Notes: generated from the sequence alone by a model not told the origin. A stretch of DNA of 64,000 bases from Raja brachyura (GCA_963514005.1 OY740818.1:19220001-19284000); one strand, 5' to 3'. Numbered from the stretch's first letter, positions 317 through 64,000 are shown. Numbers and translations are program-made.

Positions 317-420
317 ATTGAAGGTAGACAAAAATGCTGGAGAAACTCAGCGGGCGAGGCAGCATCTATGGAGCAAAGGAAGTAGGCAACGTTTCGGGCC
401 GAAAACCCTTCTTCAGACTC
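317..420 (-). mobile_element. Short hammerhead-bearing Penelope-like non-autonomous element
   Basis: Reverse complement of the family consensus GTCTGAAGAAGGG..CCCGAAACGTTGCC...GATGCTGC...GCTGAGTTTCTCCAGCATTTTTGTCTACCTTC. Confidence 0.75.
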
Positions 421-671
421 TTTCGTACCCTTCTTCCGTCTCTTCCGTACCTGATTTGTATGTGCTGAAATTCTACACTTGTTCTCTCTCCCTTCATTTT
501 CCTGCTATATTGTTCTTAAAAGTTGTGTCAGGGCAGCATCTCAGTCCAAATTTGTTACTTGTGAAGACTGACTATCAATTTAACAAACAATTCTTATTTT
601 TATGGATTGAGAAAAACAATTGTAAAATATCTGTTTTTGAGCTGTTTTATTTTTTTCTCTTATTTTTGTAG

Positions 672-828
672 AACTGCTGCATTTACGGTTCTGGCACGAA
701 TCTGACAGAATGATAAAGACAACTGTGCACACTGACTACAGATCTGAAACTTACAACATGCTCCATTTCCATTAATGTCAAAAGGCTCCTTGCAATTCAC
801 AATGTTAAATGATGCTATAACTAGAAAG
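672..828 (+). other. Candidate non-coding 5' UTR exon of NUDT13
   Basis: Long T-rich tract ending TTTTTGTAG at 671 and donor AAG|GTATGC at 828/829; all three frames are closed. The ATG exon has its own acceptor (CTCTCCGACAG at 2232), so an upstream exon is expected. Confidence 0.3.
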
Positions 829-1267
829 GTATGCTTCCACAGCTTTCCTTAGGTACCGGTAGGAATAATTTACCACTGGAATGACGTAATTCAGCAATAC
901 TCAACAAAATGAAGCTAAATGCTGGTGTTTTTAAAATGCCTGAAATACTTGGAGCAAGTATCCAAGAAAACCTGAGTGTTTTGTTTTTAAGTGATGTGGG
1001 TGTTTAAGCAAGGTGGCAATGGGACTAGGTCAGCTGGACATCTTGAAGCATCATAATTGAGTTGAGTTCTGAAGGGCCTGTTTCTGTATAATTCGATGAC
1101 TAAGACCAGTATTTATCCTTTAAGCCAGAAGACTGTAGCCTCTTTTATTTCATTCTTCACATGTTTAAATTATGTTTTATTTTTAATTTACTGTGTATCG
1201 TGTTATTACTTGCGAGCAAGGCACCAAGGCAAATTCCTTGTGTATATATACATACTTGAATAATTTA

Positions 1268-1880
1268 TTCAAGTTCAAGTGAGTTTATTGTCATATGTTC
1301 GTGATAGGACAATGAAATTCTTGCTTTGCTTCAGCACACAGAACATAGAAGGCATTTACTACAAAACAAATCAGTGTGTCCATATACCATATATAAATAT
1401 ATACACACGGGAATAAATAAACTAACAAAGCGCAACTAACAGATAATGGGTTATTATTGATCAGAGTTTTGTCCGAGCCAGGTTTAATAGCCTGATGGCT
1501 GTGGGGAAGTAGCTATTCCTGAAACTGGTCGTTGCAGTCTTCAGGCTCCTGTACCTTCTGCCTGAAGTTTGCAGGGAGAAGAGTGTGTGGCCAGGATGGT
1601 GTGGGTCTTTGATGATACTGCCAGCCTTTTTGAGGCAGCGCCTGCGATAAATCCCCTCGATGGAAGGAAGGTCAGAGCCGATGATGGACTGGGCAGTGTT
1701 TACTACTTTTTGTAGTCTTTTCCTCTCCAGGGCGTTCAAGTTACCGAACCAAGCCACGATGCAATCGGTCAGCATGCTGTTTACTGTGCACCTGTGCACC
1801 AGTTAGAGAGAGTCCTCCTTGACAAACCGACTCTCCGTAATCTTCTCAGGAAGTAGAGGCGCTGATGTGCTTTCTTGATA
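1268..1880 (-). mobile_element. Rex1/Babar-type LINE 3' fragment
   Basis: ORF 1461-1799 (..CIVAWFGN...KRLQKVVNTAQSIIG..LPSI..IY..RC.KKA.SIIKDPHHPGH.LF..L.SGRRYRS...SYFP.AIRLLN) is the typical Rex1 ORF C-terminus; microsatellite (TTGAAC)n tail. Confidence 0.85.
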
Positions 1881-2313
1881 AATCCAGGAAATTCAATTCA
1901 ATTTAATTTGTAGGAGGTGACGAGTCAGTTATTGAACAATTTGTCCCTGACTGAAGATACTCCTACTGTTTTAGTTAGGGTATTGCAGAATTTATAACTC
2001 AGAGCTGTAAGGAGAATTGTTTTTAATTTGCACCAACATATTTTCACCAAGTGACTTCGGGGGTGGGGAAGCTTAGTGATTAATTTCATTTCTGAGGTCT
2101 TCTGAGCCAAGCCACCAAAGGCAGGTGAGATATTACCCGATTGTACCATGGCCTCTGGCTGTCTACTTTCTCTTGTTGAATGTCTACAGGGTTGGATGTA
2201 CTTGGGGTATAACTTGATTCTCTCTCCGACAGCTTACGTTACTCTTTGAGCGCCCAGAATAGATTGACTAGGTTTAGTCAAATTCTACAAGCTGAATTTG
2301 AAAATCAGAAGTG

Positions 2314-5300
2314 ATGCATTTCTTTTTGAGGAATTTCAACACACCGGCACTGCAGTTATCCTGCAGAATGGTTTCAAATTATGTCAATCGGATCCGGTAA
2401 GTTTTATGTACTAGTGCATCTATTCAGTCACATCGTGTACTAACGACTGGCCCCTTCAAGTTTGTGCCATACAAAATATGGAACATCATTCTTTGACTAA
2501 AAGTAATGTTCCATATTTTGTATAGTTCTGCATATCAAGTACATGGCAGATGCAAATTAAAATTGATAACACTAAGGTATCAAAACTGTCATTGCCAATT
2601 TCAAGTGATTTCCATTTGCCACTCAAGACAAACTTCCATTTGTGCAATGAATGTGTGGAGTTTGCATACTCTCTCTGTGACCTTGTGGGTTTCCCCAGCT
2701 GCTCTAGTTTCCTCCCACATTTCAAGGACATACCAGAAGGTCAAATGGCTACTGTAGATCAACTCTTGTGTAGCTGGGGTGTCAAAAGAATCAAAGTTGG
2801 ACATATGTGAGAGAATATGTGTATAGTTCCATGAGTCAATGTGGATCCAATGGTCCAATTGGCTTTCTCAGTTATAATGAGTAAGAATCTCCTCTTACAG
2901 TCCGGAAGTGGCAGCGCTGCCCTAGCAGCTGTGGCTCGCCTGCAGTCCGTCTGTTTTTTCTTTTTTTTTGTTGTCCTTGTCCTGTTTTAGCCAGTTAATT
3001 TGAGTTGTTAGTTTGTGTGTGGGGTGGGAGAAACTTGTTTTTAGTCCCTTCCTTCAGGGGGGATGCGACGTTTTTTGACGGCCCGACTCGGGGCTGTGGC
3101 GGGCTCCGGTGGCGGTGACGGCCTGACTCGGGACTGAGGAGGTGTCCCGGCGGCGATGGCCTGACTCGGGACTGAGGTGTCCCGGTGGTACGGCAGCCGG
3201 ACCTCGGAGGTTCGCCGTACCACCATCGGGAGCTCGCAGGTCACAGGTTGGTGACCTGTTTTTCCGGAGCTCCCACGGCAACAGGTTCGTCCGCTGGACT
3301 GGAGGGTGGCAGTTTCGGCAGCTTCAACCACCCCGGGCCGCGGAGTTTGAACCGGCCTGTTCGCGGAGCACGGTTTGAGCCGCGGGACTGACTCACTTAC
3401 CATTACTCGGTGGGGTCACAACATCGGAGGCCTGGATCGCCTCAGCGCAGAGGGAGAGCAAGGAGGAAAGACACAAAGACTTAAGACTTTTGCCTTCCTC
3501 CACAGTGAGGAGGTGCTTGGTGAACTCACTGTAGTGGATGTTAATTTGTGTTTATTGCGTTTTGTTAATTTATTAAATGTATGACTGTCAGGAACGAAAT
3601 TTCGTTCAGACCGAAAGGTCTGAATGACAATAAAGGATACTTTACTTTACTTTTTACTATTAAATAATTATTAATTGCCATACAATTTCACACAGGACAC
3701 TTAAAACCATCAGAAGGAAACACATTTAATCACGACCCTTTTGTGCATCATATCTGAGGAAGGATGTGCTGGCCCTGGAGAGGGTCCAGAGGAGGTTTAC
3801 AAGAATGATCCCAGGAATGAGTGGGTTAACTTATGATAAACGTTTGACGGCACTTGGCCTGTACTCGCTGGAGTTTAGAAGAATGACGGGGGGACCTCAT
3901 TGAAACATCCTGAATACTGAAAGGCTTGGTTGGATCGAGTGGATGTGGAGAGGATGTTTCCACTACTGTGGGATTTTAGGATTAGATGTCATAGCCTCAG
4001 AATTAAAGGACGTTCCTTTAGGAAAGGGGTGAGAAAGAATTTATTTAGTCATTGTGGTGAATCTATGGAATTCCTTGCCGCAGAAGGCTGTGGAGGCTAT
4101 GTCAATGGATATTTTTAATGCAGAGATAGGTAGATTCTTGATTAGTACGGGTGTCGGGGTTATGGGGAGAAGGCAGGAGAAGGGGGTTAGGCGGGAAAGA
4201 TAGATCAGCCATGATTGAATGGTGTAGTAGACATGATGTGCCAAATGGCCTAATTCTACTCCTATCACTTGTGACCTGAGATTTTGACACTCGTTGCTAT
4301 GTGAAGCATAATTGGGCTAATTTGTTGCTCCGCTGTGACTTGGTTACATTGAAGAAACACTCTAGTTCTCCTCAATATCTTGAAAACTTCTATCAAGTCA
4401 TCCCTTGACTTGACCACGGAGAGACTAGTGACTGCAGACACTGGAATCTGGAGCAACAATCAATCTGCTGAAGGAACTCAGCAAGTTGAGTAGCATCTGT
4501 GGGTGGGAGAAAATGGCTATCATTTTGGGTCAAACTTCTGCATCATGATTTGAGTCTTGATGCGGGGTTTTGTCCTGAAACGCCAAACATTTATTTCCAA
4601 TCACAGATACTGCTTGACTCACTGAGTTCTTCCAGCACATTGTTGCTTTTTAAGCTTACAAACCTTCAAATAATGGTTAATTGTGCAGTATATCAGAGAG
4701 CAGTGGGAAATGTTATCATCTGATAGTCTGCATGTTTACTATTTCACATCAGTAAATGATGTAGATCACGTTTACATGAAATATCTGTCATTTTTCACTG
4801 TATTGCAGCCACCTCTCTGAGCTGAAAGAGGACGATGAAGCCTGCCATAAAGCTCTCAGCTCCGGAACCTTCCTGCTCTTTCATGATCTCTTGCCACTTG
4901 TGCAGAAGATTGAGAACAAGTACACAACACCATTCGTGACAGCAGCAGGTATAAATGCTGGAGAAACTCCTAGCAGTCACCTAGGAGCTGCAGAAGCTGA
5001 AAATAGATGTCCCAGGGTCACCAACAGATTGAATATCTCAACTTAAGCATGAGCCACATCTACTTAGGTTGAAACTTTTCAACAAGTTGTTATTTATCTT
5101 GTTCTGAAGAAGAGAGCATTCCTTCTGATTTCTTCATGTTCTCCACATAGGTTATTCCCCTCCAACAATAATGTGTTTTTGGATACCAATTTGCAAATTG
5201 ATTATAATTACTTGAAAAATATACTTCCAAACAGCTCTGTTGTCTATTTAGTAATGTTGATTATGATAAGAGGAGTCTAGCGGCCATACACAAATACATT

Positions 5301-8300
5301 AACTCTCAAATGCATCATAAACAAAATTTATTTCTCTGCTGGATCGACCATATTGATCTGTTAGTCATTGACAAAATCTTGCACTTTACAATGCAAGAAT
5401 GAAGCAGGAAAAAGCTTGATCCTCTTTTCAATGACAATGTGACTGTCCCATGATTTATCTGCACTCCGGGTTGAGCACCCTGAAAGCTAGTCTCCTTCAG
5501 TGTAGCTAACAAACTGATGTGTGTCTGAAGAAGGGTCTCGACCCGAAAGGTCACCCATTCCTTCTCTCCAGAGATGCTGTCACACCAGCTTTTTGTGTCT
5601 ATCTTTAGTTTAAACCAGCATCTGCAGTTCCTTCCTACACCAACTGATGTGTTAAAGCAGATTACCTTCTGTTCCAGAGCTTAAGAAGCTGGACCTGGCA
5701 GAAAAGTGGATTGAGGGATCAGTGCTAATTGACTGCACAGAGAGTCTTGTGCCACAGTTTGCACTTGATATAGGTAAGATTATTATCAAAGATCTGCACA
5801 CAACTTGATGCAACTATCTTATAAAATATTATAATGTACGTCTTTGTTGGACTATCATGCACACATGTATATAGTTTAATGCATATAAAGATTTACACTG
5901 AGAAACATATTTTATGAACTCCCTCATACATATTGTGATAATGCATGCAATGTGTATTGCCTGAGATAGGATAAACCACTTTGTTTATTTAAAATTAAGC
6001 AAGACTTGTTTTTTTCATTTACATTCGTGCATAGCCTTAGGACACAGCAAAGCATTTTAGCACCACTGAAATATTTTAAGCTTGTTAAAAAGAGGCTTTG
6101 GGTATATTGATGAATTAAGTGAGTGGTGAGGACATAGCTGATGTATTGTAAGGTAGAAAAATGTGGTAATCTACTTTGGTTTAAACAAAAAGAAAAGCAG
6201 ATTATTTTAAAAAGACGAGGAAGTGATAGGTGTTCATGATCGCTGAGACAGAGTCTCTGTATACAAATCACTATAAGTTAACACGCAGGCACAGGTAGCG
6301 AGAAGAAAGGCTAATGGTAGGCTGCCATTTATTGAATAAGGATTTGAGTACAAGGGTAGCTTATACTCAATAGAGAGCTAATTGCAAATTATATAGAACT
6401 GTAGTGAGAGCCTGCACCTGGAATGTTGTGTACTGGTTTGGTTTTCCCACCCAAAGAAGTGTATACTTGCCATAGAGGAAGTGCAACAAAAGTTCACCAT
6501 ATTAATTTTATTACCACAGTGAGGCCACATGCAAACTGGAGGAGCAACACTCCAATTCCGCTTTGGTAGCTTACAACCCAATGGCATGTTCATTGAATTC
6601 TCCAGTTTTAGGTAACTACATAACCCTCCCCCTCTCCTGTTTTCCCCCATATACCTTCACTTGTCTGGAGTGTCTAAAATCAGGGGTCACAGTGTCATGG
6701 TGAGAGCAGTCACTCAGGATTGAGAGAGGATGACATTTCCTCACTGTGGGGTGGGGGTGGGGTAAATTTTGTAATTTCCCCATTGACGAGGTCTGTGGAA
6801 GTTCAGTCACCTGGTATATTCAAGGAAGAGATTGACAGATTTCGGGATGTTATGGGAACCCAGTGATATGGGCTCAGTGCTGGAAAGTTGCTTCGAGCAG
6901 TGATGGATGGGGTGGTGGACGGGCCAAATGATTTTCTCCTGCTCCCGCTTCTTGTGCTCTGACAATGTTCTAACCTGTCTGTTCTACAAGGAAAATCTGA
7001 AAAGGCCCAGGCAGAATTGCTTCTGAAGGGAAAGTTTCTTGCTTTTCAGAAAGCTTGTACCATCATAGACAGAAATGATATATCCCTTATATCTCAGGTA
7101 AGAGCAAAGCCTCAACAAATATTAAACATTTAGCAACATTTCTCTCTTATTGTTTCCAAGCCAATGTCAGATTTAGTTAGTTTTGATGTCTAGCTGAAAC
7201 AGGAAGGCATGGTGGAGGAGAGGAGGTGGATGCGCTTCCTCACGGTGTGTATTAACGCAGGACTGTTATGTGTGTTGTATATTTTTAGGTACAATATTAT
7301 TATACTTATATGGGAGTTAGGTTGCTTTCAGAACTTTATTAAAAACTGAAATGGCAGAATCATTACAGTTTTAATTTAATTCTGCCATTTCAGTTTTTAA
7401 TTCTGCTCTGAGAATCTGAGGTGTCGTATCTGAAAAGTTCTGATTCAGAGGCAAGACTTCATTTATTGAGCCGAGAGTTTACTTCATTCCATAACACCAT
7501 GGCTGAACAGCCAGTTTACTTATTCAATAGGATTTGTTTTTTTTCGTATTGCTGCGGATTGCATTTAGCACCAAATTGGAAATGTATAAATGAATGCAAG
7601 TTCAATCGAATCAAATACTAGAGGGTGTAGCTTTAAGGTGAGAGGGGCAAAGTTTAATGGAGATGTGCGGGGCAGGTTTTCTACAGTGTGGTAAATACCT
7701 GAAATGCACTGGTTGAAACAAATACATTAGTGCCAGTTAAAAGGCTTTTGAAAAGGCGTTTGGTCAGGCAGGGAATGGAGGGATATGGCTTATGTGCAAG
7801 TGGGTAAGTGATGGCTTTGGTATCAGTTATGGCACACGCATTGTGGACCGAGGGCCTGTTCATGTGCTGTACTGTGTTCCAATGGCTGCATCCACACCCT
7901 ATCTCTAAACTAATGACTTTGAACATAACTATGAATTGAGAGTGGCATTTAAAAAAAATTCTGGTAAATCCTTATGCTGGCCTCTGCAGTTGAATGGTGA
8001 AAAAGGATTGCAAAGGTACAAAGGATTTTAACAATTTAAATTTAAGATCGATATTCTCGAGTTTGTATTTTGTCTTCTGAGCTTTATATTGTGGATCAGA
8101 CCACTTGTGGATAATACATGACACAATCATGTGATGTATTTAGGCACAGGCCCTTCTCCGCTGGCACAGCACACACCTCTACTGCAGCAGAACTGGAAAA
8201 CCGACACAGAAAAATGTATCCGGCAGCAAACGAGTCTGTGGCAATGCTGAAATAACCTATTACCCACAGGTAATCATTGTGACATACACAAATTGCTAGT

Positions 8301-11300
8301 GTAACTCAGCAGGACAAGCAGCATCTTTGGACAGAAGGAATGGGTGACGTTTTGGGTCAAGACCCTACTTCAGACAAGTCTCAGCCCGAAACGTCACCAT
8401 CCTTCTCTCCAAATATGCTGCCTGTCCCGCTAACTTACTCCAGCATTTTGTGTCTATCTTCAGTGTAAACCAGCATCTGCAGTTCCTTCCTACACACGGT
8501 AATCATTGTGGATGGCTCTGATTAGCTCACAGCTAACTTTATATTTCATAGTTTATTTATTGATTTGAATGGTCCCCCTACCTAAGGTGAGATATTCTTC
8601 CGATTGAGGTTCACCAGATTGATTCCAGCTACAATATGTTTGTCACCTGAGGATAGGTTGAGCAGACTTGACCCATACCCTCTTGAATTTGTGGTCTCAT
8701 TGAAATATACAAGATTGTCAGATAGAATAATGCCGTCCTGATGTTTCACTTGGCTGGAGTATGTAGGACCAGGGTTTACTGTCTCAAAATAAGGAGCCAA
8801 CCATTCATGGCAGAGATGAGAAGACATTTTGTGGATGATGATTTTTTAAAATTTCTCATCCAAAAGCATTGAGAAGGCTCAGATAAGAGATAGATATACT
8901 TAAATATCAAGGAATACTGAGTTAGTGTAGGAAAGTAGTGCTGAGAAGATTACAAATTATCCTATTTAATGGTGTACCAGACATGAGGTGCCAAATGGCC
9001 TGTTCCTAATTCCATGTGTCCCTGTTTTATACAATATACCTCCAGTCGGCTTTTGATTAACCAATGCCTGATTTATTAGTAAGTGGTTAGCCATGTGAGC
9101 TCACCTGCTGTTCTAAATATTCATTGCAACCATTTGTAACGATATTTAAATGCTAAGTTCTTCCTCCGATTCATTATCAACAGATGTCTCCTGTGGTTAT
9201 CATGTTGGTATCTGATGGAGCACGTTGCCTGCTGGCACGTCAGAAACAATTTCCGCCCGGAATGTACAGTGCACTGGCTGGATTCTGCAACATTGGTAAT
9301 CAGCTCCTTACTGATTATATGGAGTGCAAGATTACAGACAGAACTCAGCATTTGCAGTGTAATGTGCCTGTAAGAATAATTACTACCTCAGCAGTTGGCA
9401 ATATATGATGCTTCATGCTTGTTTGCCAATGTTTTGCCTGTGTTTGCTTCACTGATTGACAGCTTGTTTGAAATTGTGGCACAGAATTGTATCCTGTATA
9501 GATTATTACATATTCCTCGCATGTACAGCCTTTTGTCCTAAATGGTCTGCATCAATAATGGGAGCCTCATCCCATCCATTCCAATAAGGCACAAAATGCT
9601 GGAGTAACTCAGCCAGCCAGGCAGCATTTCTGGAGAACATGGACAGGTGATGTTTCAGGTCAGGACCCTTCTTCAGACCTGCCAACATTTTTCAATGAGA
9701 AGCTAGCCTGTTTAATTTATCCTGATACGTACATTTTTCTATTTCTGGCAATATCTCTCTGTTTTAGTATATTTTTCAATGTTTCTCCATCATATTTGTG
9801 CATTGTTCTAAATGCAATCCAATATTAATTGAAATTTAAAATTTCCCAATGCTTAGTTTGGCATTATTTGTGAGATTATTGATTAATGTTTAATTTGTAC
9901 ATTTTGCCCCTACATCCCTCAACAGCAAATTTTAACTGGTCCCTTCTAAGCAGTATATTCATGCAACCAAATAACAACTTAACTCATTTACCCGTTGTGA
10001 GATTACCTGCCCTGCAAGTTTATTAATGCCATCTAGTTTATTACAACATTTAGTATACCCCCCTCCCCCCCCCCGAAGATAAAAAGTGTTTATCTTCAAA
10101 TTGTGAAACAAGTTTTGATTTACATATCCAAATTAAGTCGTCAGGAAAGAAAAATAAATCCAGATAGGAGGAAAAATGAGAAGCGTGAAAGACTGGCTAC
10201 GTCCATTTTGCACACCTCCGATATCCTAGTAGTTCTGTAAGCAGAGTGTAGCTGACAGCTGTCGAAGTCCATTTTCATGCAGTGCAGAAATAATTCATTC
10301 AACTAATAGGCAACTTCATACTCATCAGTAAGCATTGATTGGTTATTCACTCTTCCAGACTAACTTGCAACACGCTCTTTTCTCCAGCATTAAATGTGGA
10401 GGCATGGAGAGGGTGCAGAGGTTTACCAAAATCCTGCCTGGATTAGGGGTATTAGCTATGAAGAGAGGTTGGATAAACTTAGGCTGTTTTCTCTAGCACT
10501 TCGGAGGCTGAAGGGAAACTTGATAGAAGTATATAAAATTATTAGCAGAATAGATACGGTAGACGTTCACAACTTTTTTCCACGGGTAGAAATGTCGATT
10601 AGAAGGCATAGCTTTAAGTGAGGTGCAACATTTATAGAGGTAAGATTTTTTTGCACAGGATTGGTGGGGCCTGGATCGCACTGCCAAGGGTGGTGGTGGA
10701 ATCAGATACAATATTGTTTTTGTTTAGTTTAGAGATTCAGCGCGGAAACAGGCTATTGAGCCCACCGAGTCTGCGCTGACCAGCACATTAACACTATCCT
10801 ACACATACTAGGGACAATTTACACTTATACCAAGCCAATTTACCTACATACCCGTACGTCATTGGAGGAAACTGAAGACCACGTGGTCATGGGGAGAACG
10901 TGCAAACTCCGTACAAACAGCACCCGTAGTCGGGATCAAACCCGGGTCTCCAGTGCTGCAAGCACTGCAAGGCAGCAACTCGACCACAGCACCATGGATA
11001 TTGGTATTTAAGAGGCTTTTGGATAGGCGCACAGATATATGGGAAATGGATCACTTGCAGGCAGAGATTAGTTTAACGGCATCGAGTTCAGCACGGACAT
11101 TGTGGGCCAAGGGGTATGTTCCTGTGCTGTACTGTTCCATGTCCTAATCCTATTTCTTGTTTTCTGTTTGCCTCTCCCAGGAGAGTCTGTGGAAGACTCC
11201 GTGCGGAGGGAGGTTGCGGAGGAGGTTGGTTTGCAGGTGACCTCGCTGGTCTATTCAGCATCTCAACACTGGCCCTTTCCCAGCAGCTCACTAATGATTG

Positions 11301-44994: not shown

Positions 44995-45900
44995 AAAAAG
45001 AGAAAATATTGGAAGGACTCAGCAGCATCAATGGGACGAGACATATAGCGAATGTTTCATGTCAAAGATGAAGAGAAAAACATCAAATGTACCTTAAGTT
45101 GCAGAGAGAAGGAAGGGTAGTGAGAACAGAGGGAATGTTCAAGAGGATACATACCAAACTTGTCAAGGCATCACTTACAAAAAACAGTAGAGAGAGACTG
45201 AAGGTGGAAAGGAATAAGAAATTGAAGCAGAAAGACTGCCCACCATTTGTGATGTGCTGGGAAAATAAAAGGCGATGTTCACCTGAAATTGTTAAATTCA
45301 ATATAGTTCCAAGGGCTACAAAATGTACAGATCTAAGACGAGATGCTGCTCCTTGAGCTTACATTGAGCAGTGTTGGATGAAGGTAGGAGGTTGAGGAAA
45401 GGGAGATTAGAATAGAAATGGGAAGTCGAATTAAAAAAACAGATGAATGGAAGTTCACAGTTGCTCTTGCTTTTTGCAAAGTGGTCATTCAGTGCTTGGT
45501 TTCTGCAGTACAGAAGGAATCATACTGAATGCACCAAATGCAATACACTAGATTGCAAGAAGTGTAATTAATTACTGCTGCTGGAAGGACTGTTTGCTTC
45601 CCTAGATGACAAGAAGGTAAGGGGTGAAAAGGAAGATGCATTTTCTGGAGTAGCAATGGAAAATTCCCTGAGAAGGGGAGTGGTTGGTAGAGATCAAGAG
45701 TGAAACAGACTTAAATAAACAATGAAATAGAAAGAAACAGAGAATAATCCTTTGGGAATTTTAAAAGAGGAGGGGGCAGTTATGTCTGCTGTGGGAATAT
45801 TTTTGAAGATGGCAGAAATTGTGGAAGATGATCCGTTGAATGTGGTGCAGTGGAAAGTGAGGATGAGCGGAGTGCTGCAAAGGGGGTTAGTTTAGAGTGA
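44995..45900 (-). mobile_element. Degraded Penelope-like element 3' region
   Basis: Minus strand near 45370-45280 reads AQCKLKEQHLVLDLYIL*PLEL..IEFNNFR, followed by a degenerate family-like end near 45000-45065. Confidence 0.5.
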
Positions 45901-46865
45901 GCAAGGACAGTGGTTAAATTGATCTTACACTAAACAGAAAATACTGGAAGCACAGGTCAAAGCATCAGGAGGGCAAGAAACATGACTGATGTTTATACAG
46001 TGCTTTTACATCAACTTGCAATAACATGAAGTGTTACATTAACAACATCCTATTTAATCAGCACATTTTCTTCTTTATTAGGTAGAGATGTAACCATACG
46101 ATCACCATCTGAAGAAGGGACCCGACCCGGAATGTGATCTATCCACGTTTACCAGAGATGTTGCTTGACCAGATGCTACTTCAGAACTTTGTGTTTTTTT
46201 ATGTAAATCAGCATTCTCCAACAGGATCAAGAATGACTTGCTTCCACTTCAGTTTAGTGGGTTCAGAGAAGACTACGAGGCTCACGTGGGACTCTGAACA
46301 GGAGGTACTTGGCAGGTGAGTCAATGGGAAGTGGTGAACTCCCTCTGCCATTTGCTCTGGGCTTCTGTGTACTTCTGACAAATGGGCTCAAAGTTCGTAG
46401 TGGCAGTCTGAACTTTCCCAAACCATCCTGAGTGGTCACAAACTGCGGATTCTGATAAAGTAGTGTGAATGCTACACCACCTCCATTGGGCTTTGAGAAT
46501 ATGCTTGAATGTTATTAACTGTGAAGTACTTTGGAAAGTGTTGACAGAGTGGAGAGTAGGGTTATTACAGGAGATTTTCTAGCTGCAGTAACCCTAACCT
46601 TAATTATACATTGGCTTAATGGAGAGTTTAACTGAAATGGAAAAAAAGATGTGACATAGCAAATAGAGATAGCCAAGTGTTACATTAATTGTATGGACTA
46701 CGTTAGGACTCCTTAGGTATAAACTGAAATATTAATATCTAATTTATTGTGCTCACATAAAGTAAATTACTTTGGTTATTTCTGCAACCTTTTATCTGAT
46801 TTTGAACTTTGCTCTTGCCTTTTAAAACAAAGACCAAAGTTCAAATCCTTATGCACTTGTCAAAC

Positions 46866-49800
46866 ATGGAGGTGAAAAAGGCTGTGGTTGGCATGGTTTT
46901 CGTTGCAATGATGAGTAGCCAGGGAGTTTCTTTGGGTAAGAAATACAAATGGAGACTGACAGTGGATTGCAAAGCAGTGATTTGGTTGTGATATTCATAT
47001 CATACTGACCTGAATATCTCCTGGTTTAAAATCTAAGACTTGATAGCCGCCATACAGATTGGATTCATGTCTTTCATGTTTTATGTGTTTGTTATTTGTG
47101 GACATGGATTCAGATTTTGCTGTTGAGTGAGGCTGGCAGACAATGTTGAACTTTAGGACATAAAGGATCGCTGAGTATCCAGTACATTTGCGCAGAGGGT
47201 AAAAAATAAGACAAATGCTTGCTGCATTTGCATGGTATCTTTCAAGTTTCTTTTAGAGGATCCCAGAGCACTTAAATACGCAATGAATTGTGGTGACTGC
47301 TGTGAAGTGCAGGCAAAAGTGACTAGTATAAATGGGGCATCTTGGTTGGCATGGACGAATTAAGCTGCAGGGTCTGTTTTTGTGCTGTATGACTCTAAGT
47401 TAGAGACATTGCAGGCTACCTCGAGCAGCAGAGTGATAAAAACTAGATAATCTATTCTAGAAATGTTCTGAACAACGTGCTCTTTTATATTCTTTAAGTT
47501 TATATGCCTGGAATGCTGTGCAAGCAAGACTTTCCACTGTGCCGTACTGAATCTTATGACAATGAACTTGACCTCATCTGAGAGAGCAGACATGTCATGG
47601 TTTAACATCTCATTAACAAGATAGTTCCTTTAACACAATAGCACCTTTCAGTCATGCAATGATGCGCATGCTCCTGTACCTTCTTCCCAATGGTAGTGGT
47701 AAGAAGAGCGTGTGGCCGGGGTGGTGTGGCTCTTTGATGGTATTAGCTACTCTCTTGAAACAGAGCTTCCTGTCGATCCCTTTGATGGTAAGGTCAGCAC
47801 CTGTGATGCACTGGGCAATATCCAATGTGGCCTCCTTCATCCTTGAAGGTTCAAATTTCCAAACCAGTCAGAATTCTTTCCACCGTATAATTGTAAAAGT
47901 TCGATAAACTTTCAGTGACATGCCGATTCTCCTCAAACTTCGGAGGAGGTAGATCTATGGTAAACATTTTTTTGTGTGATTGTATCAATGTGCTGAGCCA
48001 GTTAAGAGTTTTTGAGTCAAAGTTAAGAAATATGCCAAATTAATCCGGCCAAACTTTTGGGGCTGAGGAAAGAGTTGATATTAAGTCATGACTCTTAAAC
48101 ATCTGCACTACACATGTGTACAATACTGTCATTGGTTCGAACATCATTACGACGTGTTATTTACAAGGCAATTGGGCGTAAATTATTTTGGCTTGTGCGA
48201 GGAAAAGACTATGCTTGATTTTCAGCTTAATGTACTTGAATCTTGTTGTCAGATTGCACAAATCCACGTTTAGGACTGAGACAACCTTCCAGTTTAATGA
48301 AGCGCAATGGATGGGAGGAAATAGAACGACTATCAAAAAGAGATGTGACTATTTGCTGTTTGTTTGTTTCACATAAGCTCCAGATCTGAAGATTGATCAA
48401 GCCCTGGTTATTCTGCATAACACCTTGAGCCAGCATAATGTCAGCATCCTCTACCTGTCTGATTACTGCTACAAGGTAAGAGGATGTTAGTCAATACATT
48501 TGACTATCCACAACATTCACTCTTCTAACAACAATAGCGAAAGGCATAGATAATGGTCTGTGAAGTCCATGTGCACTACATTATGTACTTTAGCTACATT
48601 CTTCCAACTGCTCTTTCTACATTTTACTGTGGTTTGCATATGAATACTGATAATTGAAATGTCTATAAGTTAGGTTGGAAGTGACTTCTCACTTAAATCT
48701 TGCTTACACATCTAAATCAATGAAATTGACTGCCCACTAGTGTCAGTAATCATATATTAGAGGCAAGGTGAAACTGTATTTTATATTCATTCAAAACTGT
48801 AGCTGTCTATTTATGCAACATTAAAATTAAAATTACAGCGCAGAGAGAGCCTCTCGTGTTTGATGGGAGTATCAGTCTAACAAGTTGCTGTTAGTGGATG
48901 ATAGTTACACAATAGGTATATTGTGTGCAAAATCATTCCTGGTTGCTTATGGTAGTGTGGTCTCCAGGCATGATCAGTTGTGCAATAGTGGAGCCACTAT
49001 TTATAGCAGAAACATTTTGCATGGGTGGACCTTATGATCCGCTTCTCCTTGTTGGCTCAGGAAACTAGAAAGGAAAAGTCAGCCTTGCTGGCTGTAGTTG
49101 TCCCATGGCTTGAAGGACTTGTACATGACTTGTCAACATTTATCCCAGAAATAAAAGCTTCATGTGCCTCCATTCATCTCAGGGGTGTTTACAGGATATT
49201 GCTGGCAAACGGCAATCACCTCATTATCCGCAGGGCAAACCTATTGTCCATCAAAGAAGATATTTATTTTCTGAGTCACTGTATTGTGTTTCCACATGAA
49301 ATTCAGTGTGTAAAAACACCAAAATAAGAATGTTGAAAGAATAGCATAATAAAAAGCTACTTTTCTTAATTTTACTTCTTCCAAATTTCAAAAAGACATA
49401 TCAGTAATCCCCAAAAGCATCTGTGGACGGAAATGGTCTGAAGAAGGGTCCGAACCTGAAATATGATTTATCCATTTCCCTCCACAGATGCTGCCTGAAC
49501 TGCTGAGTTCCAGTAGTTGTTAATATGACTGCCTATCTCTGGGATTTCTCCCAGGACAATTTAAAGCCCTTGATTTAAAAAATGATAATTTCTGATCATT
49601 CAGTCAACTTTCCTATGATTACCTTTTTGTTACCATTCTTGGAATATGTTAAAAGTTTATTTTGAGTTTCACTTATCAAGGTGTTCAACATTTTTTTAAA
49701 TTCCCCCTTTGTCTTTGGGGTTGTACAGGTAAACAAATAATGAGAATAGGCTTCAACAACATTGGCAACCTAGTGGCGGCAGCTGGTAGAGCTGCTGTCT

Positions 49801-52800
49801 CACTGCAGCAGAGACCTGGGTTCAATCCTGACCTCGGGTGCTGTCTGTGTGGAGTTTGCACATTTTCCTGCGACCACATGGGTTTCCTCTGGATGCTCCA
49901 GTTTCCTCCCACATTACCAAGGGCGGGTTCATGGGTTAATTGGCCTCTGTAAACTGCCCCAAGTGTGTAGGGAATGGATGTGAAAGGTGGATAACATATC
50001 ATTGGTGTGAAAAGTTATCAGTGGTGGGCCGGAGGGCTATTTCCATGATGTATCTTTCAATTAATCAAAACACACTCATCCTTAATGTTGGAAGGGCAAA
50101 AAAAAAAATCAGCACAGGTAAGTTTACTAAGTTTAAAAAGCAAGTGTGGTCAATATTATAATGTAAAAATAAATCATCAGATGTGGTAATTCAAGCAGTG
50201 ATAGGGAAATAATACATAATTGCATATCTTTGAATATATTTTTGTTGTAAATTACTTCTCCTGAAAAAGAATGTGATCTTCGTATGTTGCTTCTGTTGGT
50301 TTCATTTATTGCTAACACAGAATCAGCTGATTTATCAACTATCATCATTACGTGGAATGTAAAGGGAGAGTGATGCACATGTACGTTTTCGGCTGTCTTT
50401 CCTTGCTGGGGATAAATAATAAGAATAGGAAGAATGTTACTGATAAATTCTTCATGTTAGCCACCAGGTGGTGGCAGAAGCTAGCTATTCTGATTATAGT
50501 GGCGCATTTGTTCAACATATGTTTTTCAAACTGTTTTGAATGATCCGCGCGTGGAAACACGTACATAAGACAAAAACAAATCCCACTGGTGCTTGTACAT
50601 TTGCAAGCTTGTTTTGGCTTGTGGAGTCTATTCTCATATTTGAGTCAAGGACCTGAACATTCACGACCCATTCCAGAATATGATTGTAAAGGCTTATGCA
50701 GAATTGAAGGTGTGGTGTATTGTTAAAGATGTTATATGTCGGATGAGAGCTTTACTGAAATCCTAAAAAGTTCAGATGGATGTTAACCATCTCATAGGTG
50801 CAAGAAAGAACTGCAGATGCTGGTTTAAATCGAAGGTAGACACAAAATGCTGGAGTAACTTAGCAGGTAAGGCAGCATCTCTGGAGAGAAGGAATGGGCG
50901 ACGTCTCAACCCGAAACATCGCCAATTCCTTCTCTCCAGAGATGTTGCCTCACCCGCTGAGTTACTCCAGCATTTTGTGTTAACCATCTCATACTTCTGT
51001 GAAAGAAAATGTCTCTATGACTATTTGGGACAACATTTCTCCCTCAATCAATGTCATATACCAACTGACTTCTATTACATTTATGTTTCCGTGATCTTCT
51101 TTGGTATATTTTGTTAGCTGTTCTGCAAAATCTAACACCAGTTGCTGCATTTAAAATATTGTAGCTGAAATAGGTTATGGGAAGAAGTGCCAAATAAATG
51201 GAAGTCTAATATCTTTCCTTCAGCATTCTGCTTATTGTCATACCTACATTTTCCATCTCTTTTGCAAATGGAATATCTTGCAGCTGTCTTACGTCATGTA
51301 TTTTTAATTAGAATCAATTCCAATACAATTGTACGAATAATACACATACACAGGAACCTTTCAGCTCTTCACAGTTCCTCACCTTACCACAACCAGAGAG
51401 CAATGTTGAACTGCTATCTAATTCATTGGTGACCCTCGTATTATCCTTGATCGGACTTTGCTGGCTTTCCCTTGCACTAAATGTTATTTCTTTATCACGT
51501 ATCTATACACTGTAAATGGCTCGATTGTAATTATGTTTTGACTTTCTGCTGACTGGTTAGCACACAACAAAAGCTTTTCACTGTACCTCGGTACACGTGA
51601 CACTAAACTAAACTGAAGCGTTCAAAACTTATCTCAAAGATCCACTTTGCATTGCTTTTAATATCTGTCTCAACTATTTATCCAATTCTTTCACAATCAT
51701 CTCTGCGTTGGCCTTACTCTAATGTAAACATTAGTTGGTCCAAGAATCCATGAGGTAAAGAAATAATTTCCACAGAACAAGCATTATCAAGGAGCATCAC
51801 ATCTGGCTATGCCCTTTCCTCCAGTTTGAGCGTATACTGAGAAAAAGGAACCTTTTGTGCACATAACACAAAGTATGTGAATTTATGATGTGCTTTGATT
51901 TACTTTAGGACAAAATAAATCAACACTTGCAACATTTCATGGGATAAATTGTCAGTTACTGAAATTATGACTAAGATGAAATTAAATTTGCTTTGAGAAG
52001 ACAAACTGTTCATGAGAACCAACCTGCCAGTTGAAAACACACTTTTTGCTGTCAGGTAGTTTACAGTTAATGTTACAGTTCAACTAATTTGTTATCATTG
52101 TTCAGTGAGGAGCATTGGCCTCTGGATACTGCACACAATGTGAAATTCTGAAATAAAGAATTATTCCCTTCCTTGGGGGAAATAAAGCACAGCATTCCTA
52201 TGTTTTCTTTCTGGCCCTGAACATCAGATTTCAATGTATCCATTTTTGCTTTAATTGACAAGTGCATGGTGGATAAAATTCTGTAATGCAATTACCTGGT
52301 CCCAAAATCACAAACCATCCATTCAATTCTTCCTTGAATGTTATTCAGAGATCAGTATCTGGAACTCTTTGCCAAAGGAGATGGTAGAGTCCGATACAAT
52401 CACAAAATATAAGAGACATATTTAGAAAACACTTAAATAGACAAGGCATACATAGAAATAAATGGACCCAATGCATGTCAATGGGATTAGTGTAGATGGC
52501 AAATGGTTGGCATGAACCTAGTGGAACAAATAGGCCAGTTTCTGTGTTATACAAGTCTAAAATGCTGGGAACATTTCTTTGTGGTACTAACCAGTTCAAA
52601 GACAGCTCTGAATGTTCTGTTCTCTAATCTGCTGCGTGTTTTCAGCATTTTATTTGCTTTTACGAGTCAATGACCAGATTTAATGGACTATTTACTGCTC
52701 CACCCACCCCTCTCATTTCCCAAATTGGAGATCTGGGTGAAAATGGAGTACTACAGCATCTTTTTGAACTATGATTTGCAGTTTATCCCCCTATTTCATT

Positions 52801-58800: not shown

Positions 58801-59175
58801 ATTGAGAGAGCAGGCAGACAAATGTGCTGGAGAAACTCAGCGTGTGCAGCAGCATCTATGGAGCGAAGGAAAAAGGCAACGTTTCGGGCCGAAACCCTTG
58901 GGAGAGCAGGCAGTGGAGGAGAGAAATGGGTGACAACATCTTGCTGTCAATGATAACGAGAGGCTGAAGTGTCATTCTGTTGATCATTGTGGACTCTTGA
59001 ACACCAAGGATAATCAGAATATTCTTCTCTTTTAGTGTCTTTATCAGGTTCTCCTGCATGCAGGTACTCAACAAGGAGATAGCCCGACCAATTCCAGTGC
59101 TGTTGTGAGTGTCCTGTTTCCCCTGACATTCCAGATTGTTATTGGAGATGATCATAACCATTCTGTCATCTGCAG
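46866..59175 (+). CDS. HGSNAT-like (heparan-alpha-glucosaminide N-acetyltransferase-like) gene, 5' part; coding exons 46866-46935, 48378(or 48384)-48475, 59036-59175; continues beyond window
   Basis: Phases 1/0/2 are consistent and all donors are GTAAGA. Joined peptide: MEVKKAVVGMVFVAMMSSQGVSLA-PDLKIDQALVILHNTLSQHNVSILYLSDYCYK-CLYQVLLHAGTQQGDSPTNSSAVVSVLFPLTFQIVIGDDHNHSVIC. This matches the recalled HGSNAT luminal N-terminus (LKMDQALLLIHNEL...NLTVYWKSECCYHCLFQVL...EVC) and has a signal-peptide-like start and N-glycosylation sequons. Confidence 0.85.
47460..48000 (-). mobile_element. Degraded Rex1/Babar LINE 3' fragment
   Basis: ORF 47652-47840 IKEPHHPGHTLFLPLPLGRRYRS is homologous to 1461-1799. 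Confidence 0.75.
50797..50977. mobile_element. Fold-back hammerhead-family element with 16-bp TSD
   Basis: TSD TGTTAACCATCTCATA at 50781-50796 and 50978-50993; inverted arms of about 60 bp. Confidence 0.85.
54080..54620 (+). mobile_element. Degraded Penelope-like element 3' region interrupted by a CR1 tail
   Basis: RHEEQNLIFHLSTL*P..LNIKFFHFR* at about 54090-54175; inverted CR1 tail at about 54275-54380. Confidence 0.5.
55183..55527 (+). mobile_element. CR1-type LINE 3' fragment
   Basis: Closely similar to 3935-4277 ([16 protein letters not shown]...[13 protein letters not shown]); (TTATGA)n tail. Confidence 0.85.
58818..58901 (-). mobile_element. Hammerhead-family short element with 12-bp TSD
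   Basis: TSD GAGAGCAGGCAG at 58806-58817 and 58902-58913. Confidence 0.8.
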
Positions 59176-60220
59176 GTAAGAGCAAAGTTACCTTTTGCAA
59201 TGTGGCTATTATTTTTAATGTGTGAAACATCCATGAAGTCCATTCTTATCCAACTTCTTCCAGCCATTCCAACTTTCCCCTGATTTTTCTGCTTGTGTCT
59301 TCCTATAAAATGAATTAGTTTGACTTTATGTTTATCTTTCATAATTTCTACAAAATCGTTTCAACTAATTAAAAAACCTTGGAATAGTAATTCAACTGAT
59401 AAACAGCTGAGTCCAAATAACATGAGGCTGTACCAGAAAATCTTTGGAAGAAGATTGATAATAGATGACTCGTGTAGTTGAGAACCTGAGAGCATTGTAA
59501 CGTGTAAAAGTATCTGCAGTACTGCAAAGATCAACTGTAGTCCAGCTGATACAAATAGACTGCCTGAGCTGGGAAACTGAACCAAGCTGAATTTGTGCAG
59601 TTAAACTTTCCATTTCAACTTCTTGTTGGATATCTGCTGTGACAAGACTTGCTGTCTAACATTTTCTAACTTAGTTTCAGAATTCCAGCATTCATGGTTA
59701 TTTGCATTTCTATTGCAGGGAATATAGCATAGTTTTACTCTGAAACTACGTTACTTTCTGCTCAGATTATTTGCATGGTAAAGCTCCCTTTATTCAATCT
59801 TAATAATGCAGATTTAACGTCAGTGTCAAGCAAGCATCAATATTGCACATGAGACGCCTCTAATTCACACCACAACTTCCTAATGACTCCTAAGGGTGCA
59901 ACTGTTCATTTTCTTAACTGTGGCAATTACGAGCAACGGATTTGCATGCAGTTTATAATGGAAACCTCTTATACAAAACTGTAAAATGATCAGTATTTCA
60001 CCAGCAAGGTTAAGATTAAACACCTTGACCAGAGGTGAAAGGCCAGTGCTGATCTTAGTGGCGCAGGGATTTATGTTCATTACACATTACACAGCGCTGA
60101 ACCATTATTCCCAACATTGTAACATTGTTCACTTATTTCATTCCATTCTCAGTACGATCACTTTATCAAAATGCATTTGTAAAGCTGATAATTTATGAAA
60201 TAAGTTACTAAATACTAAAT

Positions 60221-60543
60221 GGGCAGCACGGTGATGTAGCAGTTGATTTGCTGCCTTACAGCACTTACAGCGCCAGCGACCCGGGTTCGATCCCGACTAC
60301 AGGTGCTGTCTGTACGGAGTTTGTACAGTATGTTCTTCCCCTGATCGCATGGATTTTCTCCGAGAGCTTCAGTTTCCACCCACACTCCAAAGCCGTACAT
60401 ATTTGTAGGTTAATTGGCTTGGTATAAATGTAAATTATCCCTAATGTGTGTAGAATAGTATTAATGTGTGGGGATCGCTGGTTGGTTTAGACTCGCTGGG
60501 CTGAAGGGCCTGTTTCCGCGCTGTATGTCTAAACTGAACTAAA
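60221..60543 (+). mobile_element. tRNA-derived SINE (HE1/V-SINE-like); partial copies at about 2650-2760, 21215-21310, 40700-40870, 49770-50060
   Basis: B box GGTTCGATCCC, central GCTGTCTGT.CGGAGTTTG core, CR1-like tail GAAGGGCCTGTTTCC..CTGTAT..CTAAACTGAACTAAA. Confidence 0.85.
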
Positions 60544-61659
60544 TACAGCTGCAATCTGGAGAGGAAAGGAAAATAGCTTTCTCTTTGTAAGGATGTAAAT
60601 CCAAGAGCAGACGGGCCTTCTTTCCAATGATCCACAATTTGATACTTTAGAAATGTTAAGTTTATCCCTGAATTTTGCAAATCGTCAACATTTCCACTAG
60701 AATGCTATTTTTTATGGCACGGGAGACTCCTGATCTGAATGAGCACTTTTAAAGCTTGAATCAGACATGGTGCATATGATTGACAGGGAGGAGGAAAGCT
60801 TTAAACTTTGGGAGGATATAAATGATCTGCGCAGTTGGACAAAAAAGTGGCAAATTAAGTTTTCCCTGAAAAATATGAGGTAATGATGTAAGGACAAGGG
60901 AATATAAAATACATCCGGGGATATTGGGAAGGTTGAAGGAATATAAGTACCTTGGAATATATATACATTGACCTGAATGATGGCGTGACAGGTCTATAGG
61001 ATGTTTATAGAGGGATATGGGATGTTTTCCTTTATTAGTTATGGCGTAGAATGTAGTAGCACAGAGGCAAATGCTAGAATTTCGTACAATACTTGTCAGA
61101 CCACATCTTAGTACTACAATTTTGGTCACCACATTACAGGAAGGATGTTTGAACTGGATAGGGTAAGGGATATTTCCAAGTATGTTGGCCGGACTGAAAA
61201 ATTATAGCTATGGGGAAAGATTGGTTAGGGTGGTAAATTTTTCACTCGAACAGAGAAGCTTGAAGGGTGTATAATATTTTATGAGGCCTAAATAAATAGG
61301 AAAGGCCCTTTTGCAAAGATTTGAAATAGTTGACAGAAGAATTAGAAGGGTAATGGATATAGTTTTATTCCCATCCAGATGGTAGTAGAAATGTGGAACT
61401 CACGAGCTGGATGTGAACTTTCAGTCAATAACTCAAGCACGGGAAGGATGGATAGATTTTTTAAATGATCAGCACCGACACTTCACTGGCAATAAAATGG
61501 TATTTCCTACAAAATAATCTTTCAGCCTCTTGCTGCTCCCACTCAAACAGATTAACTTGACACTTTTGTTTTGGCAAAGTCTGCAAAAGGATTGTGCTTC
61601 ACTGCAAATGTTCCTTCCTTTGTGTGTTGGGCAGTTAAAACTGAAGGTGCTGAGAAATT

Positions 61660-62472
61660 TAGAATAGAATAGAATAGAATGCCTTTTATTGTCATTCAAA
61701 CAGACAAGGTTTGAACGAAATTTCATTCCTGCAGTCATGACGTTACAAAAAAAAAACCAAGACACACACTTAACACAATTTACACAAACATCCATCACAG
61801 TGAATCTCCAACACCTCCTCACTGTGATGGAAGGCAAAAGTCTTATCTCTACCTTTAGTTCTTCTCCCGCGGTCCAGCAGTCCAACGGCAGTGTAGAGGT
61901 GACTGGGGCTCACGATATTAAAGCCCTCTGCGGGCAATAGTAAGTCCCACGGCCGTTTAAGCCGCGCCGGGCGATGTTAGACCCCGCTCCGAGTCATTTA
62001 AACCCCACGATTCCGGTGAGAGAGGTTGCCATTACTGGAGGTCCGATAAGTGGTCTCCCAGCAGGGCCCTGCGAGCTCCCGATGTTCCTGTCCACTTGGC
62101 CTGCGGCCGGAGCCTCCGAAGCTCCGAAGTCGGGTTGCAGCCGCGCGCCACCACAGCTCTTCCTGCTCTGAAGTCAGCCAGCTCCGCGATGGCGAGTCCG
62201 CAGGCTCTGCGACTGGAGCTGTCAGATTAGTTCCGGATGGAGGTCGCCGCCGGCTCCACGATGTTAGGCCCAATGACACCGTAGAGCCGACAGGGAAAAA
62301 GTCGGGTCCCCGTACAGAGAAAAGATTAAATGGTTTCCCCCACACCCCCCACACATACAAGGCTAAAAAATAATAACAATTAGAACCAAAAACATACATC
62401 TAACGGGACAAAAATTTAAAAAAGACTGACGGATTGCAGTCGATCCGCTGCCATTAGGTGCCGCCACACTCC
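61660..62472 (-). mobile_element. GC-rich non-autonomous retroelement with Rex-type 3' tail
   Basis: Shares 3' sequence with 3490-3650 (CACAGTGAGGAGGTG..CACTGT..TGGATGT...GAAATTTCGTTCA...TGAATGACAATAAA); (TTCTA)n tail. Confidence 0.65.
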
Positions 62473-63221
62473 TGCTGAATTTGAAATGAAAGCAGAAAAT
62501 GGTGGACACACGCAGCAGAATTTGTGGAGAGAGAAACAGGTTAATATTTTAGATTGATTACCTTTCATCAAAAACCACGTAGCATTTCAGCGTTTTCTGG
62601 TTTTATTGTAGATAATTTATTTAACTGAATGGAGTTCCCAGCCAGGGATTGACAATTATTGCAGGAGCAGAGAAGAAAGGTCCTGCCCTGCCCCAACTCG
62701 TCAGACTCTTCACAGATGCTGCCTGGCCCGCTGAGATCTTCCACCATTTTCTTTTGTAAAGTTACACCGTTTTTTTGTGACTACTTAAAACAGCATGACC
62801 AATTATTCTGGGCTTTTTTTTAACACTTTTAGGAAGCAATGTGCAGGAAATTATGCCTCTCTACCTAGATGATAAATGTTCATGTAGAAGTCCAGCATTG
62901 AAGCAGTGCAATTTGTGACCAAAACTGTGCAGTTGAATTTCCAGAAGTCATGATATGATGCAGAAATGGTGCTACTTGCGTGTTACTCTGGGAACAAATG
63001 ATTTTCATTTACTTAGAAAAAGAAACAGACAATTGAATTTCTAGGCGGGAACCTTTTTCTTTTGACCCTTAAGTCAAACATGATTGTTGAAAGTAGCATC
63101 TATAAAATACTTAACCATTATATTGGGCTTTCTCACGTGAACTTGATTTGAAATCCAAATGAGTAATTCCATTCCATTACTTTGGAAATCCAAATTGATT
63201 CAAAAATGGTAAAGTGATTAA

Positions 63222-63622
63222 TTTCTCCAACATCTCCAGATTTGCAGATGACACCAAGCTGGGGGGTATAGTTAGGTGTGAGGAGGATGCTAGGAGGCTG
63301 CAGGGTAATTTGGATAGGCTGAGTGAATGGGCAGATGCATGGCAGATGCCGTATAATGTGGATAAATGTGAGGTTATCCACTTTGGTGTCAAAAACATGA
63401 GGGTAGACTATTATCTGAATGGTGGCAGATTAGGAAAAGGGGAGATGCAACGAGACCTGGCTGTCATGGTACACCAGTCATTGAAAGTAGGCATGCAGGT
63501 GCAGCAGGCAGTGAAGAAAGCAAATGGAATGTTAGCATTCATAGCAAAAGGATTTGAGTATAGGAGCAGGGAGGTTCTACTGCAGTTGTACAGGTTTTGG
63601 TGAGACCACACCTGGAGTATTG
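63222..63622 (+). mobile_element. CR1-type LINE reverse transcriptase fragment
   Basis: ISRFADDTKLGG...LQGNLDRLSEWADAWQM.YNVDKCEVIHFG...QAVKKANGMLAFI (RT FADD motif); truncated by a hammerhead-family insertion at about 63623-63700. Confidence 0.9.
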
Positions 63623-64000
63623 CGAAACGTTGCCTATTTCCTTCGCTCCATAGATGCTGCCGCGGCCGCTGAGTTTCTCCAGCATTTTTGTCTACCTTCA
63701 TAAAATAGTAAATAGTTTTTATTGATGTTAGTTGTCCTCCATCTAGGTATTATAATAGGTGGGATTGTGTAGTGGAAGGGGAACTCTGAATTGATTTGGA
63801 ATTCAATTGGAAATTTGAGCATGAATGATTGAAAATGAACCGGGGAAAAAAACCCTTTGATCCTTCTTTTCTTAAGTAATTTACCAGATACAGTTCTTTT
63901 AAGTCCTCTTTAGAACATGGTGGCAGGTTTTAATCTATTATTAATCATCTAAATTAACAAAAACAAAAGCTTTGATAGAAGATAGAAGTCAATATCCCTG

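Follow-up and report, generated by a model that had tools for sequence, protein, structure and literature searches.

In a stretch of 64,000 nucleotides from Raja brachyura (GCA_963514005.1 OY740818.1:19220001-19284000), referred to here as the window, we analyzed a family of short dispersed repeats that carry a minimal hammerhead ribozyme motif. These repeats, which we call stubs, are the hammerhead-plus-tail end of an autonomous, endonuclease-bearing Penelope-like element (PLE) present in the same genome, and most likely they are dead-end copies which ran off uncleaved, probably capped RNA. The original prediction had described them as an abundant, Penelope-linked family that was non-autonomous and retrozyme-like. 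The abundance and the link to Penelope hold, because the repeats consist of PLE end sequence and their exact 28-nt core occurs 50,608 times in the genome (0 times for the control). An independent family is not supported, since the same sequence terminates elements with open reading frames (ORFs), and its arrangement is not that of retrozymes, since the copies are solo or head-to-head instead of forming head-to-tail arrays (PMC7229834).

A profile built from ten window copies and applied at E ≤ 1e-3 identified 32 segments, which make up 24 insertions and 2,990 bases of the window, while the best match in the reversed window reached only E = 4. About 20 dispersed copies had been proposed, and all 17 coordinates named for them lie inside the 24 insertions. 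The repeat unit of about 130 nt comprises the core, a 4-bp stem II, GAAAC-GTH and some 100 nt more before a sharp end, and 8 of the 24 insertions are head-to-head pairs. Target duplications of at least 9 bp flank 10 of the 24 insertions, compared to 4 of 300 random controls. The clean duplications of 9–16 bp claimed for many copies were present at nine of the 17 named ones, but none was found at 9600, 42095, 42692, 43380, 46108, 49437 and 63623, and the copy at 317 showed only 8 bp plus filler. As predicted, a tRNA head and poly(A) are missing, with no tRNA gene in the window and no poly(A) in the copies inspected; the copies thus lack the tRNA head and the A-rich or repeat tail of tRNA-derived short interspersed nuclear elements (SINEs), and their 3' ends are PLE tail sites. 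The stubs fall into six clusters with mean divergences of 8–23%.

The parent element is represented by locus L124, a whole insertion with a 15-bp duplication, an inverted arm ending at the shorter of two 3' sites (see below) and a truncated tandem unit. Hammerhead and tail run directly into a frame of 1,204 codons (stop to stop), and a second hammerhead follows 232 nt after the stop codon, succeeded by a long tail and the duplication. The encoded protein has a long, proline-rich N-terminal part, a reverse transcriptase (RT) domain with DKG and YIDD motifs, a CX4CxxC linker and a GIY-YIG endonuclease (EN) match, which scored 22.0 bits on a 376-aa part, just below the cut-off of 22.6. The linker that separates RT from EN is also present in the frame of locus L033 and suggests an element of the Neptune/Nematis type. 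Homologues of the 1,204-codon frame carry the RVT_1 domain, and the named ones come from sharks and rays (65–74%); the 742-aa RT-EN part gave no match in the PDB. When we searched with the 376-aa frame of L033, all 109 scored places showed 98–100% identity, with open frames of up to 1,204 codons. One subfamily with open frames is active, and for it the claim of a recent amplification is correct; the window copies are 4–25% diverged from the nearest subfamily consensus.

Measured by script, the core lies 169–367 nt past the stop codon in 41 of 43 RT/EN frames, nearly always at 225–243 nt. Copies continuing upstream of the stub (21 of 203 sampled segments) pass through a pyrimidine-rich stretch into the end of a GIY-YIG frame. 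The wobble version of stem II was found on ORF-bearing copies as well, with two clear GIY-YIG matches among ten copies. Because every variant checked occurs on ORF-bearing copies, we take the stubs to be the ends of autonomous elements that differ in age. A search with the GIY-YIG family itself retrieved mainly a different PLE, and the stub was present in 0 of 30 of its loci. The first ATG of the long frame (L124:6553-6548, minus strand), about 170 nt after the core, overlaps a strong donor-like AAG/GTATG, and the bases before the core are acceptor-like with a pyrimidine tract. Judged from DNA copies, splicing to the AG before the core and back-splicing from the donor-like site both seem unlikely: 90 loci showed neither a spliced copy nor a common upstream exon, and no such joint was among the 15 listed of 290.

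Genome-wide numbers were estimated from 80 arbitrary 10-kb stretches, which contained 259 insertions (reversed control, 0), extrapolating to about 870,000 insertions. The stub alone accounts for about 3.8% of the sampled bases, and stubs far outnumber long copies. Among the 259 insertions were 53 head-to-head pairs; after leaving out 16 with an unclassed end, the remaining 37 consisted of 29 pairs of a long and a short arm (18 expected), 7 short-short pairs and a single long-long pair. Simple same-strand doubles within 40 nt were seen only twice in the 259 sampled insertions and not at all in the 24 of the window, so there are no retrozyme arrays.

The ends of the copies are strongly patterned. 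Of 125 exact young copies, 77 end at 90–96 nt and 39 at 126–128 nt, leaving 9 elsewhere, and an optional tail of about 34 nt distinguishes the long from the short 3' end. At the other side, 5' ends pile up 2–4 nt ahead of the core: 22 of the first 30 exact-core loci start just before it, and among 131 single-arm copies whose core start is intact, 102 have no sequence in common with four upstream references of the pseudo-long terminal repeat (pLTR), a figure to be read as an upper one because the upstream library had only these four members; 17 extend by at least 100 nt. Of the 50,608 exact cores, 9,800 are not preceded by the parental GT, 9,709 keep GT but not the A before it, 6,473 keep AGT but not the C, and 24,626 have CAGT. 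Where a foreign base replaces the parental one, G is strongly over-represented, namely 3,188 G versus 3,285 A or T at position −4 (2.6 times background) and 5,397 G versus 4,312 C or T at position −3 (2.9 times background). In 3 of 30 loci of the G class, the duplication directly abuts G-AGT. Breaks internal to the ORF showed no excess (12 G of 50, expected 11.8).

The predicted cleavage site behaves differently from this hot spot. The G:A ratio there was 43:57 in 100 listed cases, resembling background without a G excess, and there was no peak of 5' ends (314 versus 277 at the next base). True breaks were confirmed at 16 of 30 loci at the cleavage site, three of them representing one tandem locus, and at 12 of 30 loci at the next base. 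Loose ends at the same bases were present in four sequencing runs from two other organisms (contigs, probably DNA). No sequence was shared upstream of the stubs, with a loose-end agreement of 0.36–0.41. The 5' hot spot with its extra G, together with the lack of either at the cleavage site, therefore indicates that the stubs are likely run-offs of uncleaved, probably capped RNA. The context before the core fits a pyrimidine-A initiator, and extra G residues derived from cap copying are known from work on LINE-1. We found no account of a cap-derived G at PLE junctions among the literature matches listed. A separate observation concerns L295-L297 (G000:C2:55272484-55272638), where at least three tandem 61-nt units have the exact predicted cleavage site as their first boundary and stop close to the short RT start; this locus could stem from repeated copying of a cleaved 3' product.

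By analogy with PAc, the Anolis Poseidon element (PMC11167929), we envisage that the GIY-YIG endonuclease would nick the target and that the RT would prime inside the RNA, with its start some 95 or 128 nt past the ribozyme core. It would then run off the probably capped 5' end just before the core of an uncleaved RNA, which would begin at A(−3) or G(−2). The 5'-proximal start site would lie about 100–130 nt from the 5' end of every transcript, so that priming there would yield a stub; in a tandem transcript, priming at its downstream copy would yield a long element. More tentatively, we propose that a capped RNA starts 2–3 nt before the core and that its first 100–130 nt, copied in full by run-off from two fixed internal priming sites, gave rise to several hundred thousand stubs, with one cDNA per target strand in head-to-head insertions.

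Several points weigh against this interpretation. Start site and cap are read from genomic copies; untemplated addition at any RNA end could give the same G counts, as could stalling at the CAG-T-CTG palindrome combined with G-rich filler; and G is enriched at two neighbouring positions. The control of ORF-internal breaks is small (50) and its ends were taken from BLAST, and the library of only four references means that some older long copies were classed as short. The sequence runs on into the pLTR at 8 of the first 30 exact-core loci, and 9,768 of the 50,608 cores, all belonging to the CAGT class, carry the upstream 11 nt of the young subfamily exactly. Finally, the invariance of the core is matched by that of other stub blocks, and pair covariation on 25 rows did not exceed that of shuffled alignments (33–54 of 500).

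The motif itself was correctly recognized as the minimal type I hammerhead of PLEs, with an extra nucleotide after A9, the pair G10.1-C11.1 and a palindromic 15.2-16.2 pair (PMC4209133). These features are present in the young subfamilies, and a loose search for CTGANGA-N-GAAA gave 15 matches in the window (6.3 ± 2.6 in shuffles), eight of them family copies. The prediction that most copies contain all or part of the motif needs qualification: all 11 core positions are kept in 8 of 32 segments, but only three (288-418, 14947-15041 and 42694-42796) also have the 4-bp stem II, the ACGT palindrome and a cleavable triplet. Likewise, stem II does occur in two versions which both keep pairing, but the second has a U·G wobble as its top pair, resulting from a one-sided change (2 of 25 rows) and not from a compensatory one. 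An Rfam covariance-model scan, proposed as a check, returned no hammerhead among 14 matches in the window up to E = 10. When four subfamily consensuses are compared, variation is seen in 0 of 21 columns of the core and stems but in 16 of 60 downstream columns (p = 0.008), and with five consensuses the values are 1 of 21 and 19 of 60; because these columns stay constant, the motif is kept by the master lineage. The lower mismatch of the core among the copies (7.3% versus 10.0%) is weak evidence, because copies decay neutrally and G12 lies in a CpG. A consensus fold of 25 rows predicted stem II alone. Helix I has two contiguous pairs in both the 42692 copy and L124, short of 4–5 bp; the predicted energies are −4.8 kcal/mol for stem II and −1.7 kcal/mol for the stem III duplex, and stem III is not adopted in predicted monomer or dimer folds. 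Published minimal PLE hammerheads cleave weakly as dimers (PMC4209133). The hammerhead is likely a weak cutter that depends on dimerization or protein and is idle in nearly all genomic copies. In addition, some 50 nt inside the stub lies an invariant block of 8 nt (L124:2617-2750, minus strand) that can pair immediately before either the short or the long end, and two alternative hairpins of this block might set the two RT start sites, although the consensus fold did not recover them.

An alternative explanation for the 5' hot spot is that, on a read-through RNA, the RT stalls or switches template where it meets the folded hammerhead or the palindrome, with no transcription start involved. Head-to-head junctions run through the palindrome in 7 of the first 30 exact-core loci, palindromes at inverted junctions have been described (PMC3846280), and the ends are spread over several bases, as stalling would suggest. 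Against this stand the weakness of the presumed block (a 2-bp stem I and the stem II mentioned above), the location of the ends 5' of the structure and not at its 3' foot, and the G excess confined to the hot spot, which stalling, although it accounts for the inverted junctions, explains poorly, so that we consider this scenario unlikely. Because the stub holds a likely promoter and both RT start sites, it is also conceivable that the stubs form an independent non-autonomous family of the SINE or retrozyme kind, which an internal promoter would transcribe and the PLE protein would copy anew in trans. Most copies are indeed short and have a common 5' edge, an internal promoter is known in the Penelope element of D. 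virilis (PMC2377424), mobilisation in trans needs no more than pLTRs (PMC3846280), and a preprint derives animal retrozymes from pLTRs (bioRxiv 10.64898/2026.07.22.740005). Yet no stub-only variant was seen among the variants checked, all of which, including the one with the wobble stem II, occur on ORF-bearing copies, and neither arrays nor a common sequence upstream of the stubs were found. This makes such a family quite improbable.

We regard it as highly improbable that the stubs self-cleave in host pre-mRNA, alone or as dimers. The very high copy number, the three window segments with a whole motif and the dimer cleavage reported for minimal PLE hammerheads (PMC4209133) are compatible with such activity, but each of these three either lies antisense to a mapped host gene or falls outside such genes (see below), contrary to the predicted placement of self-cleaving motifs in host introns. 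Because the whole motif is present in only 3 of 32 segments and in none sense to a mapped gene, cutting of host introns by the window copies is unlikely. Moreover, the predicted folds lack stem III, five head-to-head pairs fold into long hairpins instead, and the PAc ribozyme needs its protein and yielded no cleavage-site reads (PMC11167929). Our preferred explanation is the run-off from uncleaved RNA.

The 24 insertions of the window are as follows (head-to-head pairs are given without strand):

288..418, minus strand: single stub from hammerhead to long tail end; whole core, GUU triplet, wobble stem II; 8-bp duplication 282-289/432-439 with filler
4431..4642: old head-to-head pair, 23–25% diverged; cores broken
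5523..5640, plus strand: single stub, long tail; stem III without its palindrome; target duplication of 11 bp
8281..8497: head-to-head pair with the short end on the left and the long tail on the right; both cores broken
9587..9678, minus strand: single stub, short end; palindrome lost; no duplication detected
13112..13167, plus strand: tail-only fragment without hammerhead
14947..15041, minus strand: single stub, short end; whole core, GUU, wobble stem II; stem I partner absent (0 contiguous pairs); 15-bp duplication
15091..15211, minus strand: single stub, long tail; A9 changed; 16-bp duplication
21497..21712: head-to-head pair, short and long end; both cores broken; 9-bp duplication
23442..23569, plus strand: single stub, long tail; G12 changed; 9-bp duplication
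30478..30576: head-to-head pair without hammerhead; ECD intron
31976..32104: old head-to-head pair; core broken; ECD intron
35209..35248, minus strand: tail-only insertion of 40 nt; 15-bp duplication; ECD intron
37693..37821, minus strand: single stub, long tail, ECD-sense; G5 changed, palindrome lost; 14-bp duplication
42100..42201, minus strand: single stub, ECD-sense; 2-nt deletion in stem II; palindrome lost
42257..42441: head-to-head pair, long and short end; no whole core; ECD intron 1
42692..42796, plus strand: best-kept motif; ECD intron 1, antisense; no duplication detected
43382..43554: head-to-head pair directly upstream of the ECD start; right-arm core kept, stem III wobble
46108..46214, plus strand: older stub; core broken
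49436..49538, plus strand: older stub; position 17 is G, triplet not cleavable
50798..50987: head-to-head pair, long and short end; CUGANGA absent in both arms; 16-bp duplication
58810..58899, minus strand: single stub beginning within the core; 16-bp target duplication with one mismatch
62672..62752, plus strand: decayed old stub
63623..63700, plus strand: stub beginning at G12, without the first core half

The 42692 copy has C3 at 42696, stem II at 42704-42715, a predicted cleavage after 42723 and a 2-bp stem I, and retains about 13 nt of the upstream pLTR; its part at 42680-42760, for which cleavage assays had been suggested, is 9% diverged.

Copies had been assigned to introns of four genes, of which two could be mapped. 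ECD exons run on the minus strand from 43096 to 24270 and match a skate protein at 82–100% in 11 of 12 aligned pieces, and NUDT13-like exons lie on the plus strand. A second gene (16.2-22.5 kb) is visible only as open frames, without a Pfam match, and no fourth gene was found in the 149 of 160 candidate frames scanned. The copies in ECD sense (37693, 42100 and arms of 30478, 31976, 35209 and 42257) have broken or missing cores. The pairs at 8281-8497, 21497-21712, 42256-42441, 43380-43554 and 50797-50987 are predicted to form long hairpins of −56 to −121 kcal/mol on either strand; because the hairpin forms whichever strand is read, these five pairs are candidate sources of double-stranded RNA in host introns. 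At the first of them, the 13-bp duplication (8269-8281/8498-8510) includes the final base of a NUDT13-like exon together with its splice donor, creating a second donor 229 nt downstream which, if used, would join the hairpin to the exon out of frame. The window also contains an old GIY-YIG-like fragment (45304-45501, minus strand; 38% identity over 71 aa to the young PLE endonuclease) and two AT-rich hairpins (2465-2527 and 7328-7406) with weak microRNA-model scores far under the gathering cut-offs, which are probably unrelated small inverted repeats.

[quoted passage not shown] Those of R. brachyura share the CUGANGA/GAAA/UH core, the unpaired base after A9, the G10.1-C11.1 and palindromic 15.2-16.2 pairs, the missing loop III and the occurrence as mostly solo copies with some head-to-head pairs. 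They differ in a helix II of 4 bp (7–8 in Schistosoma) and a helix I of 2 bp (4–5 in Schistosoma, 2 in D. virilis), and 50,608 exact copies compare with about 4,000 motifs in coelacanth and 9,000 in Xenopus (PMC4209133); no cartilaginous fish is named in the available parts of that account. As in EN+ PLEs of the Neptune and Nematis types (Craig et al. 2021, PMC8557442; Arkhipova et al. [quoted passage not shown] The long proline-rich N-terminal part and the large surplus of stubs over long copies set the element apart from those described. In PAc, two RT start sites about 100–130 nt past the hammerhead likewise define the tail, and unprocessed RNA is the main template (Frangieh et al. 2024, PMC11167929), which is also our reading here. 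The PAc ORF starts inside the hammerhead, whereas here the first ATG lies about 170 nt downstream, and the available parts of the PAc account describe no 5' hot spot with an extra G. Animal non-LTR retrozymes are also short and non-coding with a type I hammerhead, and are related to PLE pLTRs (PMC7229834; bioRxiv 10.64898/2026.07.22.740005); the preprint found them in one chondrichthyan. They form head-to-tail arrays of 150–450 bp with canonical hammerheads and circular RNAs, in contrast to the copies observed here, which are ends of an autonomous element, solo or paired head to head, and have a minimal core. We found no published account of the family in this lineage in a literature search that did not extend to Dfam, Repbase or supplements.

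The genome contains a second EN+ PLE (L051-L083, L085 and L089), which forms tandem arrays, many of them near contig ends, e.g. at G000:C8:89.33-89.40 Mb of 89.42, C1:187.43 Mb of 187.44, C17:19-35 kb and C21:3-10 kb. Its frames of 757–760 codons contain RT and GIY-YIG domains above the Pfam cut-off and are 32% identical to the L124 protein. A (CCCTAA)n run, always C-rich in the sense strand, follows about 190–380 nt past the stop in 24 of 43 copies, and most of the others run on into the next unit. The element itself has a telomere-like end, and one 600-nt spacer showed no hammerhead. Judged from these features, the element looks like a telomere-repeat-targeting PLE with an endonuclease, for which we found no description among the literature matches listed. 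It is possibly more interesting than the hammerhead stub family.

PLE hammerheads, solo copies, inverted pairs and the one-sided tail are already published, and the value of this family lies in its scale and in the readout provided by mapping ends rather than in the ribozyme. Tens of thousands of mapped copy ends are informative about the role of the PLE hammerhead: they point to inserted copies coming from uncleaved RNA, consistent with the in vitro result for PAc, and to a start site at the ribozyme. In repeat annotation, such copies should be classed as PLE ends and not as SINEs or functional intronic ribozymes. If the proposed capped start is correct, the ribozyme would sit on the transcription start and have hardly any helix I in the primary transcript, and a role as promoter or RT-binding element may explain its retention as well as cleavage does. 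The start site and the RT start sites of a vertebrate PLE could then be read from the genome to the base.

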